This document shows positions 5,072 through 49,369 of a stretch of DNA of 64,000 nt, piece by piece (within the stretch, counting starts at the first letter, position 1; every line of letters starts with the position of its first letter). The translations under genes were made by a program, and so were the position numbers. Location of the stretch: assembly GCA_043819795.1 (NCBI GenBank), contig JBDREN010000049.1, positions 2,379 through 66,378 on the forward strand. The letters run 5' to 3'. The notes under the pieces were generated by a model. It was not told where the DNA came from, ran no database searches, and was given only the letters and a program-made list of their open reading frames with translations. The DNA is from Elusimicrobiota bacterium (GTDB taxonomy: Bacteria > Elusimicrobiota > Elusimicrobia > UBA1565).

Positions 5072-7951
5072 ATGAAGCACACTGCTTGGCTGTCGATCGG
5101 CGCGATGATCCTGTTCGCGGGAGCCGGGTCCGCGGCCCCGTTTCGCCCCCTCGAGCCCAAGGAGGCCGCCGCGCTGATATCGAAGATCCAGGCCAATCCG
5201 CGCGGGCCGTACGAGCGCGTGATGTGGCACTGCCGGGACGGCTCGGTGCTGCCTCCCGCGCCCTATGCCTGCTCCGAGCGCGGCGGCGGCCGGCAATACG
5301 GCGTCCCGAACGCGGACGCGGGGAAGCTGGCTGCGGCCGGGATATACGTCGGCACGGTCTTGGCGTCATTGTCGCCCGAGGATCTGACCGCCGACGGCTA
5401 TTACCGCGCGCGGGCCATTATCGTGGAGAAATTCCTCGAGATCGCGCTGGACGGGTGGGCCTTGCGTTCGGCGAAGTCGTATCGGGGCTTCAGGCAGGCC
5501 GAAGACGAGGAGAAAGCGGCCGAAACCCTTCTGGCGGTATTGGCCCGCGAGGACGGCTGGGCCCTGCGCCATCGCTACCTCGCCGTCCGGCTCGCGCGGT
5601 CCATGCCGGGCGGAGCGGACGCGAGCCTGGCCGATGAGATCCGCGCCCTCGCCGCCAAGATAGCGGACAAGGACCCCGCGTTCCAGGGCATGCGCTCCAA
5701 GATCCACTCCATCATGGAGCCCGGAGACGCCAGCGCGGTGCTGAGCTATTCGGAAACGGCGCCGGCGGCCGCGCCGGCGGCGAGGGAGCTGGCGGAGAAA
5801 ATCCGGGCCTATTACGACCCGCGCCAGTTGCGCGACCGCCTCCGGAGGATCAGACGCTTCTTGCCGGACCGGGGGATCGCAGGCCTGATCGACGAGTTGG
5901 TTTCCGCGGAAGCCGATGTCTTCGAGCGGATACGGATCGTCGAGGAATTGCTGACCCTGGCGGACCGAGCGCTCGGCCAGGCCGCGTCCCGCACCGACGG
6001 GACCCGGCTCCACCTGATCCAACTCATGAGCGCCTTGGAGGATGTCCTGGCCTCGACGACCGCGCAGCTAAGAGGCGCGAGCATGTTCAGGCTTCAGGCG
6101 GTGGAGACCGCGCAGAGGCTGTCGCGGTGCGCCCGGGCGCTCGGGCTTCTCTCGCCGCGCGAGCTGGAGGCCGCCCGGCCGGTCATAGGGCGCATGCGGA
6201 CCGGAGGGGGAGCGGATTACGTCGCCGGGCATCGCCAGCTGATTCGGACCGCCGAATGGGCTCGTGCCCTGGTGCTGTCGGAGCTGGGCATCCCCATCGG
6301 CCGGTACGTCCTGGCCGAAGGCCGGGCGGCGCAGGTCGTGGACGAGCTGCTTCGCAGCGGGGTGATGCTGCCGCTGGCGGCGATCATCGACCGCATCGGC
6401 GCCGACCTGTACTCCCTGCGGGGAGGGAACCATCGCGTCTACGGCGTGAAGGGGGCCGCCGTGCGGGGCGAGAACCCGGGCCTGGCGATCGGGCCGCTTC
6501 GCGTCCGAGAGCATTCCCAATCGCCCAAAGGACTCAAGCGCAACGAGGTGGCGCTCCTATATGAGCTCCCTTCGGAGCTGCCTCCGGTCGCGGGGATCAT
6601 CACCGTGGGCGCGTCCGGCAGCCTATCGCATGTCGCCCTGCTGGTGCGGAATCTGGGGATTCCCTTGGTTTCCGTGGACGGGCGGACCGCCGACGCGATC
6701 AAGGCCTGGGAAGGGCGGGAGGTGGCCGTGGGCGTGAGCGCGGGCGGCCGCGTGGTCTTGGGAGAGCTTATCGCGTTCGGGGAGGAAGACCGGCGGCTGT
6801 TGGGGCGATCGTCGGCCAAGGACCAGCCTTTCCTGAGGATCCCGCGCGAGTCGCTCAACCTCCGCTTCGCGGAGGCCCTCGCGCTGGGCGAGGTGTCGGA
6901 AAAGGATTCCGGGGCGAGGGTCGGGCCCAAGGCCGCGGAGCTGGCCAGGCTCAAGCGTCTGTTCCCGGATCGCGTGAGCGACGCGGCGGTGCTGCCCTTC
7001 GGGCTGTTCGTCGAGCATGTCGACCGGCCGGGGCCGGACGGGGCTCCGTCCCCCCTGGCGAGGCTGCGGTGGGCCTATGCCCAGGCGGCCACAAAAGGCG
7101 CCGAGGAGCGGGAGCGGTTCATGCTGGAAGAGCTCGCCAGGTTCCGCAAGCGGATACTGGAGCTCCCCTTTGCGGATGGGTTCGAGCGGAAGATCGACGA
7201 GGCGCTCGCGCGCGTCGGCCGGCCGGGCGCATTCGGGGTCTTCGTCCGCAGCGACACCAACGTGGAGGACCTCAAGGAGTTCACCGGCGCCGGCCTGAAC
7301 CTGACGGTACCCAACGTCGTAGCGCGCGATTCGGTCTTCTCCGCGATCCGTTCGGTCTGGGCGTCCCCCTATTCCGAACGCTCCTACGCCTGGCGGCAGC
7401 GCATACTCCTCGATCCGGAGCATGTCTATCCGTCGGTCATTCTCCACAAGACCGTTCCCTCCGAAATATCGGGGGTCCTGGTCACGATGGACATGGAGAC
7501 GGGGGATCCGGGCCAGGTCACGGTGAGCGCGAGCGAGGGCGTGGCCGCGGTGGTGGACAGCGGCCTTCCGGAGACGATCGTCGTGCCCAGACAGGGAGGC
7601 GCCCCTCGGTGGCTCTCCTCGTCCCGGACCGCGACCAGGAAGGCGGTCCCCCCGTTGCCGAAAGAGGGGCTCGAGGTGCTCCCCGCCTCCGGCGGCGAGC
7701 CTCTGCTGGGACCGGCAAGGATCAAGGACATCCTCCATGTCGTTTCGCGTCTGGAGACGATCGAACGGGCCGACCCGGCCGTCCCCTGGGATGTGGAGTT
7801 CGGGTTCCTGGGGGATCGGATGTTCCTCATGCAGCTGCGGCCGCTCAAGGTGTCCCGCTCGGCCGTCCGCCAGCCCTATCTGCGGAAGCTCGATCGGGAG
7901 GTCTCGTCGAGGATCGGCGAGGTCGACATGAGCCGGCCGTTGGCAAGGTGA
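5072..7951 (+). CDS. Exported PEP-utilising / PPDK_N (ATP-grasp dikinase-like) protein with permuted domain order
   Basis: N-terminal signal-like MKHTAWLSIGAMILFAGAGSAAP. Swivel phosphohistidine signature GASGSLSHVALLVRNLGIPLV (His codon 6629-6631). Downstream PPDK_N-like blocks VGPKAAELARL, FVRSDTNVEDLKEFTGAGLNLTVPNV, VWASPYSERSYAWR, SGVLVTMD, PWDVEFGF..LMQLRPL. Confidence 0.8.
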   Translation: MKHTAWLSIGAMILFAGAGSAAPFRPLEPKEAAALISKIQANPRGPYERVMWHCRDGSVLPPAPYACSERGGGRQYGVPNADAGKLAAAGIYVGTVLASLSPEDLTADGYYRARAIIVEKFLEIALDGWALRSAKSYRGFRQAEDEEKAAETLLAVLAREDGWALRHRYLAVRLARSMPGGADASLADEIRALAAKIADKDPAFQGMRSKIHSIMEPGDASAVLSYSETAPAAAPAARELAEKIRAYYDPRQLRDRLRRIRRFLPDRGIAGLIDELVSAEADVFERIRIVEELLTLADRALGQAASRTDGTRLHLIQLMSALEDVLASTTAQLRGASMFRLQAVETAQRLSRCARALGLLSPRELEAARPVIGRMRTGGGADYVAGHRQLIRTAEWARALVLSELGIPIGRYVLAEGRAAQVVDELLRSGVMLPLAAIIDRIGADLYSLRGGNHRVYGVKGAAVRGENPGLAIGPLRVREHSQSPKGLKRNEVALLYELPSELPPVAGIITVGASGSLSHVALLVRNLGIPLVSVDGRTADAIKAWEGREVAVGVSAGGRVVLGELIAFGEEDRRLLGRSSAKDQPFLRIPRESLNLRFAEALALGEVSEKDSGARVGPKAAELARLKRLFPDRVSDAAVLPFGLFVEHVDRPGPDGAPSPLARLRWAYAQAATKGAEERERFMLEELARFRKRILELPFADGFERKIDEALARVGRPGAFGVFVRSDTNVEDLKEFTGAGLNLTVPNVVARDSVFSAIRSVWASPYSERSYAWRQRILLDPEHVYPSVILHKTVPSEISGVLVTMDMETGDPGQVTVSASEGVAAVVDSGLPETIVVPRQGGAPRWLSSSRTATRKAVPPLPKEGLEVLPASGGEPLLGPARIKDILHVVSRLETIERADPAVPWDVEFGFLGDRMFLMQLRPLKVSRSAVRQPYLRKLDREVSSRIGEVDMSRPLAR

Positions 7952-45712: not shown

Positions 45713-47005
45713 ATGACATCCGAAACCCGTGGGTACGCGATCGTCTTGAGCGCGCTCCTGCTTCTGGCCGGGGGAGCCGGGGCCGGTCATGCGGCGCCGG
45801 ACAAGCTGGGGAAGGTCAACGTCCTGGGCGTCTGGAAAGGCGAGGAGCTGCGCAGCTTCCGGGCCGTGGTGAAGCCGTGGGAAAAGGAGACGGGCGGCAA
45901 GATGCGTTTCGAGGGCAGCCGGGACCTGTCGGCCGTCTTGACGGCTCGGGCGGCGAAGGGCGACGCGCCCGACGTCGCCATCCTGCCCAATCCCGGCCTC
46001 ATGGTCCAGCTGGCGAAGACGAAGAAGCTCGTCCCCCTCGACGGGATGCTGGATATGACGCATTTCGAGGCGGAGTACGCGCGGACCTGGATCGAGCTGG
46101 GATCGGTGGAGGGCAGCCTCTACGGCGTCTTCTACAAGGCCGCCAACAAGAGCACGCTTTGGTACAGCCCCCAGCAGTTCTCCGACCACCAGTGGCCGAT
46201 CCCGCGGACCTGGAAGAGCCTCCTGGCGGTGTCGGAAAGGATCCACGAGGAGGGCAAGACCCCCTGGGCCCTGGGCCTGGAAAGCGGGGATGCGAGCGGC
46301 TGGCCGGCCACCGACTGGATCGGCGAGATCCTGCTCAAGGAGTACGGCCCGGAGAAATACGACGCGTGGGTCGCGCATGAGATCCCCTGGACCGACGAAG
46401 CCGTGCGCTCGGCGTGGGAGAATTTCGGGCGGATCGCGCACGGCGAGGGATACGTGGCGGGAGGCGCTTCCGGGATATTGACCACCGGCTTCCGGGAAGC
46501 GGCGTACCGGGTCTTCCGGAAGCCACCGAAGGCGTATCTCTACTTCCTCGGGAGCTTTACCAAGAAATTCATCACCGAGCGGTTCTCCGGCCTGATGCCG
46601 GCGAAGGACTATTCCTTCATCCCGTTCCCGGCCTTGAACCCCGCATACAGCGGGGCCGTGACCGGCGGGGCGGACGTGGTCGTCGTGTTCAAGGACAACG
46701 CGACCACGCGCTCGTTCATCAACTATCTCGCCTCGGCCGAGGCTCAGGAGATCTGGGTCGAGCGCGGGGGCTTCACGGCCGTCAACCGGAAGGTCAGGCT
46801 CCACAGCTATCCCGACTGGGTCTCCGCGCGGATCGCCTTGCAGCTGTCGAACGCCAAGGTCTTCCGCTTCGACGCCGACGACCAGATGCCGGCCGAGGTC
46901 CAGAAGGCCTTCTGGAAGGGAGCGCTCGACTACGTCCGTGATCAGGCGAGCCTGGACCGCGTCCTCGAAGACATCGAAGCCGTCGCCCGGAAGGCCTACC
47001 GGTAG
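45713..47005 (+). CDS. ABC transporter extracellular solute-binding protein (family 1, sugar-type), orphan
   Basis: Signal peptide YAIVLSALLLLAGGAGAGHA and family-1 SBP pattern (VNVLGVWKGEE..DVAILPNPGLM..YKAANKSTLWY). No permease or ATPase genes follow. Confidence 0.85.
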   Translation: MTSETRGYAIVLSALLLLAGGAGAGHAAPDKLGKVNVLGVWKGEELRSFRAVVKPWEKETGGKMRFEGSRDLSAVLTARAAKGDAPDVAILPNPGLMVQLAKTKKLVPLDGMLDMTHFEAEYARTWIELGSVEGSLYGVFYKAANKSTLWYSPQQFSDHQWPIPRTWKSLLAVSERIHEEGKTPWALGLESGDASGWPATDWIGEILLKEYGPEKYDAWVAHEIPWTDEAVRSAWENFGRIAHGEGYVAGGASGILTTGFREAAYRVFRKPPKAYLYFLGSFTKKFITERFSGLMPAKDYSFIPFPALNPAYSGAVTGGADVVVVFKDNATTRSFINYLASAEAQEIWVERGGFTAVNRKVRLHSYPDWVSARIALQLSNAKVFRFDADDQMPAEVQKAFWKGALDYVRDQASLDRVLEDIEAVARKAYR

Positions 47006-47177
47006 CGTTGAAGCGGCCCGCTCGTAATGGGAAGGCCGTTCCCAAGCGAATCCGCGAGAGAGTGAGCGTCCTGGCCGGGTCGCCGCGTCTGTGTCTCCCC
47101 GGAAGGAACGAATGAATGCGTAGGCCGCGGGGCGAGCTTGCGGCGCTGGAAAGAATCCGCCGGTGTTGAACGCCGGT

Positions 47178-47220
47178 CCGCACGGCTGGGGATAGATCGG
47201 GAAAGTCCCCAGCCGTGCGG
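47178..47220. other. Perfect 15-bp stem hairpin (CCGCACGGCTGGGGA / TCCCCAGCCGTGCGG, 13-nt loop)
   Basis: Arms at 47178-47192 and 47206-47220 are exact reverse complements, followed by TGCTTTG. Possible weak terminator of the SBP transcript or a structured RNA element. Confidence 0.6.
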
Positions 47221-47470
47221 TGCTTTGAGGCCTGCCCGAGTATCCTAGCCCGAATTCCCCGTCTGGATCGCTGGATTCGACGCAAGATGCCGGGACTTTT
47301 CTGTGCGAAATGTCTCGACCGCACGGTTTCCTGACAGGGAGTGGAAGCGGCATTTCCTCGTGGTGACGCTTGGTCATGCCGCAGCGGGTACGCTCTCCAA
47401 ATTCCGCGTTGAACTGGCCTCGGCCTCTTGCATCTCGGTCCCACGCGCCCAACTGGGGAATCCGGGCCAG

Positions 47471-47771
47471 GTGTAGTGAACCATAAATCCCTTGACATTC
47501 GGGCGATCGATTTCGGCCTCCGGCTAGGCGCGGGGAGCGCGCATGCCCGCAGGTATGTAAGCGACGAGCAACGACGCCGGAAGCCAAAAGCGCCCGCCCC
47601 CTCCTCCTTGACGCGGACAGCGGCGAAATTCTATGGAAAGGGGAGGCCCGATCCCGGCCGATTCCCACGTTGCTCCTCGGTTGCATAGCTTAAGCCATGC
47701 GCCCTCATCGCGCCTCGAAATCGACTCGGGCTCGGGCCTCCAAATGACAAGGGATTTATGATTCACTACAC
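47471..47771. mobile_element. MITE-like non-autonomous element (~300 bp) bounded by 29-bp terminal inverted repeats
   Basis: GTGTAGTGAACCATAAATCCCTTGACATT (47471-47499) versus the reverse complement of 47743-47771 (GTGTAGTGAATCATAAATCCCTTGTCATT) matches at 27/29. Imperfect complementarity continues inward (CGATCGATTTCGG / CGAAATCGACTCG). No ORF inside. Confidence 0.45.
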
Positions 47772-47941
47772 TAGCGATGGCCACTTACTGATTCGGATGG
47801 GGCAAATCCTTTCTATAGCGCAGTATTGTTAAATATGAAACATGTGGCGCTGCTAAACGTTGCAAAAGAGAAACTAGAAGCAGTTTGGAGGCATTCTGAA
47901 CTGGTCAAAAAGAACGAAAAAAACGCAACTATTGGTGGCTA

Positions 47942-47970
47942 TTGCAAAATGGAACGATATCTGCTATAAT
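47942..47970 (+). promoter_or_regulatory. Promoter of the PAS/AAA+ regulator gene (sigma-70 TTGCAA-17-TATAAT, overlapping a sigma-54-like GG-N10-GC element)
   Basis: TTGCAA 47942-47947, 17-nt spacer, TATAAT 47965-47970 with TG at 47962-47963. Also TGGAACGATATCTGCT (47950-47965). RBS GGGAG lies 7 nt before ATG 48011. Confidence 0.5.
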
Positions 47971-48010
47971 AGAACCATAGCATACGTTTCCAGCCGCCGG
48001 GAGTTGATAT

Positions 48011-49369
48011 ATGCAGTTTGAAGGCCAAGGTCGTTTTTTCGAGACCATCCTCCGTTGTGTCGCTGACGGCGTGTTCACGGTGGACCGCGACTGGCGTATC
48101 ACCTCCTTCAATAAGGCGGCCGAGCGCATCACGGGCATGAGCGCCCGGCAGGCCATGGGCAAGAGATGCTCCGAAGTCTTTCACGCGGACCTCTGCGGTG
48201 ACGGCTGCGCCATCAGGCGGGCTCTCGAGACCAAACGCGAGGTCATCGAGCAGCCGGCCAATATCCGCGACCAGCGCGGCAGGGCGATCCCGATAAGCAT
48301 CAGCGCGGCCGTGCTTCGGGGGGAGGACGGGACCGTCCTCGGCGGGGTCGAGACGTTCCGCGACCTGTCGGCCATCGAGCAGCTCAGGCGCGAGATCCGG
48401 AGCCAGTACACCTTCGAGGAGATCGTCGGCAAGAGCGAGGCTTTCCAGAAGGTGTTCTCCATCCTGCCGGACGTCGCCGCCAGCGAGAGCACGGTCCTCA
48501 TCGAAGGCCCGAGCGGCTCCGGCAAACAGCTCCTGGCGCGGACCATACACAACCTGAGCCCCCGCCGGGATCGGCCTTACGTCGTGGCGAACTGCGGGAT
48601 GATGCCGTCCGGCCGCTGCGCGTCCGAGCTTTTCGGCCACGTGCGAGGCGCCTTCAAGGACGCCAAGGGGGACCGGCTCGGCCGCATCGCGCAGGCCGAA
48701 GGGGGGACCATCTTCCTGGACGAGATCGGCGACCTGTCGATGGAGAGCCAGGTCAGGCTCCTCAAGGTCCTTCGGGACGGAGAATACGAGCCGCTGGGCG
48801 GCGTCAGTCCCCGGCGCGCCGATGTGCGCGTGGTCGCTGCCACGAGCAAGAGCCTGCCGGATCTGGTCGGGCGGGGGCTTTTCCGCGACGATCTCTACTT
48901 CCGCCTGGCGGTGGTGCGGCTGAGCATACCGCCCCTGTCCGAGCGGCGCGAGGACATCCCCTGCCTGGTCGAGCACTTCGTCCAGCGCTTCAACGCCAAG
49001 CGCGGCAAGAGCATCCAGGGGGTGACGCCCGCGGCCATGGAGCTTCTCATGCGCCATGGTTTTCCCGGGAACGTGCGCGAGCTGGAGAACCTGATCGAAT
49101 GCGGCTTCGCTCTATGCCACGGCGGATGGATGGACGTCGGCCATCTGCCCGAGGATCTGAGGCCGTCGCGGCGGCCGGGCGCCGCCGGGCGCCGCCTCGA
49201 GGGCGCGTCCCTGCTCCGGCACATCGAGGCGGACGCGGTCCGCGCCTCCTTGGGGCGGAACGCGGGCCATCTCGGCCGCACGGCCGAGGAGCTGGGCATC
49301 AGCCGGACCACGTTGTGGCGCAAGATGAACAAGTACGCCATCGAAGCGGACGAGTTCCGGGCCGGTTGA
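48011..49369 (+). CDS. PAS-domain AAA+ enhancer-binding-protein-type transcriptional regulator (NtrC family, no receiver domain; GAFTGA replaced by GAFKDA)
   Basis: N-terminal PAS (ILRCVADGVFTVDRDWRITSFNKAAERITG), Walker A GPSGSGKQ, ELFGHVRGAFKDA, GGTIFLDEIGDL, RVVAAT, FRDDLYFRL, GNVRELEN, C-terminal Fis-type HTH GISRTTLWRKMNKY. Confidence 0.9.
   Translation: MQFEGQGRFFETILRCVADGVFTVDRDWRITSFNKAAERITGMSARQAMGKRCSEVFHADLCGDGCAIRRALETKREVIEQPANIRDQRGRAIPISISAAVLRGEDGTVLGGVETFRDLSAIEQLRREIRSQYTFEEIVGKSEAFQKVFSILPDVAASESTVLIEGPSGSGKQLLARTIHNLSPRRDRPYVVANCGMMPSGRCASELFGHVRGAFKDAKGDRLGRIAQAEGGTIFLDEIGDLSMESQVRLLKVLRDGEYEPLGGVSPRRADVRVVAATSKSLPDLVGRGLFRDDLYFRLAVVRLSIPPLSERREDIPCLVEHFVQRFNAKRGKSIQGVTPAAMELLMRHGFPGNVRELENLIECGFALCHGGWMDVGHLPEDLRPSRRPGAAGRRLEGASLLRHIEADAVRASLGRNAGHLGRTAEELGISRTTLWRKMNKYAIEADEFRAG

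Follow-up and report, generated by a model that had tools for sequence, protein, structure and literature searches.

A palindromic element in an intergenic gap

The window, the whole 64-kb stretch of DNA analysed here, is ordinary chromosomal DNA of about 67% G+C and holds a 301-bp palindromic element at 47471-47771. The element occupies a 1,005-bp gap, the longest non-coding stretch of the window, between a solute-binding-protein gene (45713-47005, plus strand) and a PAS/sigma-54 activator gene (48011-49369, plus strand) that heads a Fer4/CCG-NrfD-cytochrome c cluster. The product of the activator gene is 100% identical to a database protein (P0001), which ties the window to an NCBI MAG labelled Elusimicrobiota. 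Other large gaps in the window were considered as hidden insertion sequences and turned out to hold genes instead (encoding Omp85, an aminotransferase, a metallo-beta-lactamase-fold protein and hydrogenase/oxidoreductase subunits), and no transposase, recombinase or reverse-transcriptase domain was found among the ~52 window ORFs. About 170 nt past the solute-binding-protein gene lies a near-perfect hairpin (47174-47222; a core of 15 perfect base pairs and 19 pairs when folded, at -36.7 kcal/mol) followed only by GCTTTG, which is probably the terminator of that gene, although it was not among the calls of the terminator scan. On the other side, G+C content reaches its lowest in the window (41-47%) over positions 47772-48010, and a good sigma-70-like site with an extended TG (TTGCAA-17-TATAAT, 47942-47970) sits 40 nt before the activator ATG, placing the element upstream of the activator's promoter-like site.

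A preliminary description of this locus had proposed a MITE-like element bounded by 29-bp inverted repeats that match at 27 of 29 positions. We recovered these arms at 47471-47499 and 47743-47771 with exactly this match; a comparable inverted repeat appeared in none of 100 shuffled versions of the window that preserved dinucleotides. A repeat finder widened the arms to 32 nt (47471-47502 and 47740-47771; 29 of 32 positions, 91% complementarity), separated by an inter-arm interval of 237 nt. The left terminal inverted repeat, GTGTAGTGAACCATAAATCCCTTGACATTCGG on the plus strand, and the right one, GTGTAGTGAATCATAAATCCCTTGTCATTTGG as read on the minus strand, both match a terminal profile of 13 family ends (E=3.9e-10 and E=1.4e-11, respectively), and the termini have 38% G+C against 67% for the genome. 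Complementarity also continues further inward, as had been suggested: when the element is aligned with its own reverse complement, the alignment spans positions 1-300 (nhmmer E=1.6e-21).

Both strands of the element fold stably relative to shuffles, the plus strand at -148 kcal/mol (z=-5.8) and the minus strand at -173 kcal/mol (z=-8.5). Within the terminal repeats, the consensus fold of four copies and its pair counts delimit an internal hairpin arm of ~100 nt (47501-47599) with the tip pattern GCATxxC...GxxATGC; a central spacer (47600-47641) that is unpaired, weakly conserved and 14 nt shorter in copies from the genome REEB4 described below; and a second hairpin arm of ~100 nt (47642-47741), to which the first is an inverted homolog and whose stem base the repeat finder also called (I8). 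Coding capacity is limited to two mirrored 86-aa ORFs lying over the element (47428-47688, plus strand; 47524-47784, minus strand), both of which contain the string VVNHKSL, as noted when they were first taken to be artefactual. A protein search covering the minus-strand ORF only found no homolog among 5.8 billion proteins and gave nothing as a route to more copies; we therefore treated this ORF as an artefact, and the plus-strand ORF is its mirror image. Annotating the element thus explains two spurious ORFs together with the longest non-coding gap of the window.

The window copy shows no visible target-site duplication, in agreement with the preliminary description. Its left flank reads CAG (47468-47470, plus strand) where other copies show CTA, the duplication having decayed or never been made; its right flank reads TAG (47772-47774, plus strand), which with the last base of the element forms CTAG, as at 8 of 13 aligned family ends. 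CTAG is about 9-fold rarer in the window than base composition predicts (21 seen, 197 expected). No second copy of terminus or core was found within the 64-kb window.

Related copies and their probable insertion at CTAG

We scanned 185,579 species-representative genomes (one per species) for an exact 20-mer from the repeat, TAGTGAAYCATAAATCCCTT, and obtained matches on three contigs of one MAG, Elusimicrobia bacterium REEB4 (68-69% G+C). At least three copies are present in this genome: L004 6054-6341, L002 6845-7093 (the same locus as L015 10846-11093) and a copy on L001 that is incomplete, cut at the locus edge. They align end to end with the window element at 70-76% identity and with one another at 96% identity; the L004 copy has perfect arms (35 nt at 100%), and the L002 copy carries a 39-nt deletion that takes away the tip of one hairpin. 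A match on a 28% G+C Clostridium contig (L003 2764-2783) was treated as a probable chance hit, having no similarity outside the 20-mer, with about two chance matches expected from the length of the pattern. The search for further copies that the preliminary description had proposed returned full-length relatives in another genome, and the case named there as speaking against mobile DNA, a lone copy with no related IS and with compensatory changes conserved in its stem, is not what was found. Four short contigs that encode an identical NadC protein (L016-L019; from runs SRR32006850, SRR32006840 and SRR32006849 and a second MAG, GCA_028870695.1) all stop after 59-66 nt of the element, just where the copies begin to diverge. 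Such breaks in independent short-read assemblies are the expected mark of a repeat that an assembler fails to resolve; the family fragments assemblies of G+C-rich Elusimicrobia MAGs.

One REEB4 copy (L002/L015) sits between nadC and birA, with junctions that read GGT CCC TAG/TGTAGTG... and ...CACTACAC TAG/TG CTG, where slashes mark the boundaries. Each boundary CTAG is overlapped, one by the nadC stop codon and the other by the GTG start of birA. Both the nadC stop and the birA start are regenerated by the flanking CTAGs (L015 10843-11099, equivalent to L002 6842-7096), and in the reconstructed empty site, GGTCCCTAGTGCTG, the stop (TAG) and the start (GTG) would overlap as TAGTG. Empty sites had been suggested as a check, and for this copy they were found in two relatives, only 77% (L020) and 74% (L021) identical in NadC, where the element is absent and a single CTAG lies at the nadC stop (TCC TAG ccg and GGC TAG agc). 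At L004, the copy directly adjoins the TAG that ends a 552-aa ORF. In REEB4, two of three flanked insertions fall exactly on the TAG stop codon of a gene that is left intact, making the family a clean example of CTAG insertion on stop codons without gene damage.

Well-preserved copies (L002, L004 and L011, the last from the metagenome scan below) are flanked by CTA/.../TAG, and CTA precedes 8 of 13 aligned family ends, with a sharp outer boundary. Because CTAG is palindromic, duplications of TA and of all 4 bp fit these flanks alike, and CTAG may be either target or part of the element. Judged from the junctions, TA may have been duplicated within a CTAG target, so that the element would read GTGTAG...CTACAC in IS630-like fashion; a 4-bp CTAG duplication, with an IS5-like element reading TGTAG...CTACA and bearing TG...CA ends, would fit equally well. 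Degraded copies favour neither reading. Duplications of 5 or 6 bp (Tn7-like, or IS481-like at NCTAGN) were rejected, as the L004 and L002 flanks are unmatched past CTAG.

Conserved termini and a double-hairpin core

The ends of the element carry the family terminal motif GTAGTGA(A/G)TCATAAATCCCTTT. Searching metagenomes for GTAGTGARYCATAAATCCCTT gave nine contigs, with G+C contents of 42-53%. The matches at L005 5130-5158 and L010 912-940 are probably due to chance, with the match lying inside a 1167-aa ORF. At L006, L007, L008, L009/L013, L011 and L012, the terminus has a sharp outer boundary, usually cta/GTGTAGTGAGTCATAAATCCCTTT, and is followed by hairpin-rich interiors that are unrelated. 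A second end, diverged but recognisable, is present in L006, L007, L011 and L012 as GTAGTGAATC-TAACACTTC-TTTAC, with the variant GGAGTGAGTC-CAACGTTTC-TTTAC in L006, and the terminal repeats are imperfect in every element on these low-G+C contigs for which both ends were seen. Element length is about 160-225 nt for L006, L011 (398-621, flanked by cta/.../tag) and L012, and at most ~130 nt for L009/L013, whose far end is not fixed; the L008 element is cut by the contig end. In these elements from low-G+C hosts, the interiors consist of hairpin modules that are rich in G+C, among them GTCATTCCGGGCTTGACCCGGAATCC and GTTCGTCCTGAGG.... L008 also carries a group II intron on its minus strand (182-252 and 259-1611; Rfam RF00029 domain V/VI and an ORF with RVT_1 and GIIM), with the RF00029 match stopping ~90 nt upstream of the element's terminus.

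The same termini over unrelated interiors, in hosts spanning a wide range of G+C, are what we would expect of a transposase binding site. The terminus may resemble the Himar1 repeat (ATAA.TCCC). A literature search for the terminal sequence gave only an unrelated paper on radish; as far as we have checked, the repeat family is undescribed, while its kind (MITE) is well known. Each terminus includes a weak outward promoter-like site (in the window at 47744-47772, ATGACA-17-TACACT), the -35-like hexamer of which is absent as a conserved feature in the low-G+C copies, and an outward-facing AAGGGAtttATG resembling a start codon preceded by a ribosome-binding site. The outward ATG of the L001 terminus (121-1412) is in frame with a ~430-aa ORF begun in the flank.

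The consensus fold of four copies consists of a 31-bp outer stem, two ~100-nt hairpins and an unpaired centre. Across the two inner hairpins, pairing covers 95.8% of cells, compared with 29-40% in slid controls, and compensatory double changes occur in 20 of 69 pairs against one-sided variation in 5; none of 500 shuffles reached the observed covariation, which was measured on four sequences from three lineages only. Pairing in the inner hairpins is thus maintained. The two strands fold almost alike in the consensus (-142.8 versus -144.8 kcal/mol), and the preferred strand differs from copy to copy when copies are folded singly. An apparent strand bias from G-T versus A-C mismatches (15:3 on one strand) was discarded, as folding the other strand made it vanish. 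Relative to neighbouring genes, the window copy is antisense and the REEB4 copies are sense. Equal folding of both strands and variable orientation point to a symmetric constraint at the DNA level, or to hairpin-templated copying, rather than to a strand-specific RNA.

A sibling element at L004 2634-2902 keeps the whole ~215-nt core, at 68-72% identity to the core of the window element, between outer 25-nt ends (AGGACCTGCGTCACGATAATATGG...) that are unrelated to the family termini; another 25-nt inverted repeat, TCAGCTAAGAAGCGCTGAGGTGGGT, surrounds it (L004 2579-2963). The sibling lies directly after a gene's end. Motifs of the core are, for example, AAGCGACGAGCAACGA and the hairpin-tip pattern. 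Compensatory changes and a core with swapped termini are not predicted by a simple MITE that arose as a deletion derivative. The conserved unit might accordingly be the ~215-nt double-hairpin core and not the termini, carried between terminal repeats of at least two unrelated kinds, either as a module of single-stranded DNA that folds on its own into a Y shape needed for its propagation or as a functional RNA or DNA structure repeatedly captured by transposon ends. We regard this proposal as doubtful; if it were true, the 24-nt terminus would be a portable mobilisation tag used across phyla, with a cognate transposase yet unseen.

The compensatory changes also bear on the alternative raised in the preliminary description, a long-stem structured RNA, which we considered as an ncRNA gene or cis-acting RNA element with a functional outer stem and functional inner hairpins, copied by gene duplication. 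The stability of the fold on either strand, the covariation of the inner hairpins and the retention of the core under different termini in L004 2634-2902 all suit such an RNA. It is nevertheless unlikely. No family in Rfam 15 matched the window region or the related elements at gathering score, and no relevant one did at E<10; strand preference is inconsistent, with near-equal consensus energies, a wobble excess that flips with the strand folded and copies that differ; orientation to neighbouring genes varies; and insertion at stop-codon CTAGs, together with the empty site, speaks for mobility of DNA. The small sample behind the covariation weakens the case further.

Maintained pairing would also follow if the element had to fold in order to move. 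In this form, the element would be REPIN-like, an inverted pair of REP-type units with 5' GTAG heads, moved as single-stranded hairpins by a RAYT or IS200-type tyrosine transposase and not by a DDE enzyme. GTAG does occupy positions 3-6 of the terminus, where conservation begins at all loci, and hairpin-dominated, DNA-symmetric elements suit a single-strand mechanism. A REP unit joins GTAG to a short hairpin beside it, and such systems have many copies and a RAYT gene. Here, however, the 29-nt terminus does not fold on itself, and ~30 nt separate GTAG from the first hairpin, which departs from the layout of REPs; the apparent copy number is low (three contigs in the REEB4 MAG by exact 20-mer); no Y1 transposase domain occurs among the window ORFs; and CTAG flanks with preserved stop codons are better suited to a staggered-cut duplication. 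We find this origin quite improbable.

A further explanation would make the element a regulatory palindrome of the neighbouring PAS/sigma-54 activator, serving for instance as its binding site or as an operator. It was considered because, at L013 and L009, the motif lies just after an activator 47% identical to that of the window, in the same operon type, with the order activator, Nitro_FeMo-Co gene, Fer4/CCG genes. Yet the closest ortholog locus fetched (L014, 71% identity) is without the motif, the intergenic region of L013 exceeds that of L014 by about the length of the element, the element of L013 includes neither the sigma-54 promoter nor the likely upstream sites, and unrelated genes adjoin the REEB4 copies (nadC and birA; a histidine-kinase-like ORF with the 552-aa ORF). 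On these grounds the activator link was rejected as very improbable. Sigma-54 promoter-like sites precede the Nitro_FeMo-Co gene in both loci (TGGCATTGTTATTGCT at L013 2059-2074 and TGGCTTGCGATTTGCC at L014 ~7503-7518), with TGAAAC-containing repeats upstream of them; the window operon is without the small Nitro_FeMo-Co gene, and its activator is followed directly by a Fer4/CCG gene. Finally, a chance or local palindrome without family or function, such as a replication-slippage foldback, would fit the single copy in the 64-kb window but is scarcely credible given the shuffle result, the full-length homologs in another genome and the recurrence of the terminus in unrelated contigs.

Probable mobility and likeness to known systems

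We conclude, with a probability of roughly 0.7, that the window element is a decayed copy of a non-autonomous, foldback-type DNA transposon (MITE) moved in trans. Its 301-bp size, lack of coding capacity and terminal inverted repeats all suit a MITE, and it is part of a dispersed repeat family, with copies scattered in REEB4, termini conserved over unrelated interiors, insertion at CTAG that leaves genes intact and an orthologous site that is occupied in REEB4 and empty in relatives. The call of a MITE-like element in the preliminary description, tentative at the time, has gained support from these copies, the empty site and the shared termini. On this reading, a pair of ~32-bp terminal inverted repeats surrounds two hairpin units of ~100 nt each, inverted relative to one another, and a short spacer, with no gene. 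In the mechanism we propose, a transposase encoded elsewhere would bind the terminal motif, excise the element by cut-and-paste and insert it at the rare tetranucleotide CTAG, duplicating TA in the style of IS630/Tc1-mariner or the entire CTAG in the style of IS5. Since its arms mismatch at three positions and its flanks lack an intact duplication, the window copy is probably no longer mobile and most likely an immobile relic. One may speculate about a regulatory effect, whether as a hairpin terminator or insulator or through the outward promoter-like site at 47744-47772.

The parent insertion sequence with a transposase that the preliminary description had proposed to look for did not emerge: no autonomous partner with these termini was found in genome, metagenome or viral exact-pattern scans (the viral contigs giving no matches at all), by blastn of the window and REEB4 elements against the plasmids of PLSDB (short chance matches only) or among the window ORFs, and since the partner scans demanded an exact 20-21-nt match, a partner with slightly different ends would escape them. 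Two features set the family apart from a routine MITE: a terminus kept across hosts of 42% to 69% G+C with no partner transposase found, and a hairpin core with compensatory changes that also occurs under different termini.

IS630-family elements duplicate TA (PMC2170065), and IS630 prefers TA in 5'-CTAG-3' (Tenzen & Ohtsubo 1991, as given in PMC2170065); RUP of Streptococcus pneumoniae is an IS630-linked MITE proposed to be mobilised by IS630-Spn1 (PMC2229807). Like RUP and other IS630/Tc1-mariner MITEs, the present element is small and non-coding and has terminal inverted repeats and TA junctions, with CTAG in the well-preserved copies, and like those of RUP its transcripts would form long stem-loops. 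It differs from RUP in length (250-300 bp versus about 107 bp) and in its G+C-rich interior, and from IS630 MITEs in that neither an IS630-type transposase nor an IS with matching termini was found. MITEPsy1, an IS5-derived element of Pseudomonas syringae, targets CTAG or YTAA, duplicating 4 nt on insertion (PMC3189936), and would share the CTAG...CTAG flanks if the element proper is TGTAG...CTACA. By contrast, the termini of MITEPsy1 (GGAAGGTCTGAAAAAGCC) and ISPsy2 (PMC3189936) bear no resemblance to the present terminus (GTGTAGTGAATCATAAATCCC), and MITEPsy1, at 100 nt, is without an internal hairpin pair.

The Correia/NEMIS elements of Neisseria have terminal inverted repeats of about 24-26 bp with terminal TA, lie in intergenic sites and have no known transposase (PMC2229807, PMC10969869, PMC2649163). 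The present element shares with them the terminal inverted repeats, TA termini, intergenic position, predicted long hairpin transcripts and outward promoter-like ends, but it has no sequence similarity to Correia elements and resides in another host phylum; Correia elements are also shorter, at 107-155 bp, and number more than 100 copies, compared with about three detected here in one scanned genome. With REPINs, the element has in common inverted unit pairs, a GTAG-containing head, hairpins and an intergenic location. Unlike REPINs, it has a terminus that is no hairpin, a low copy number and no RAYT gene seen; it is about three times longer, and its flanks resemble those of a staggered-cut duplication.
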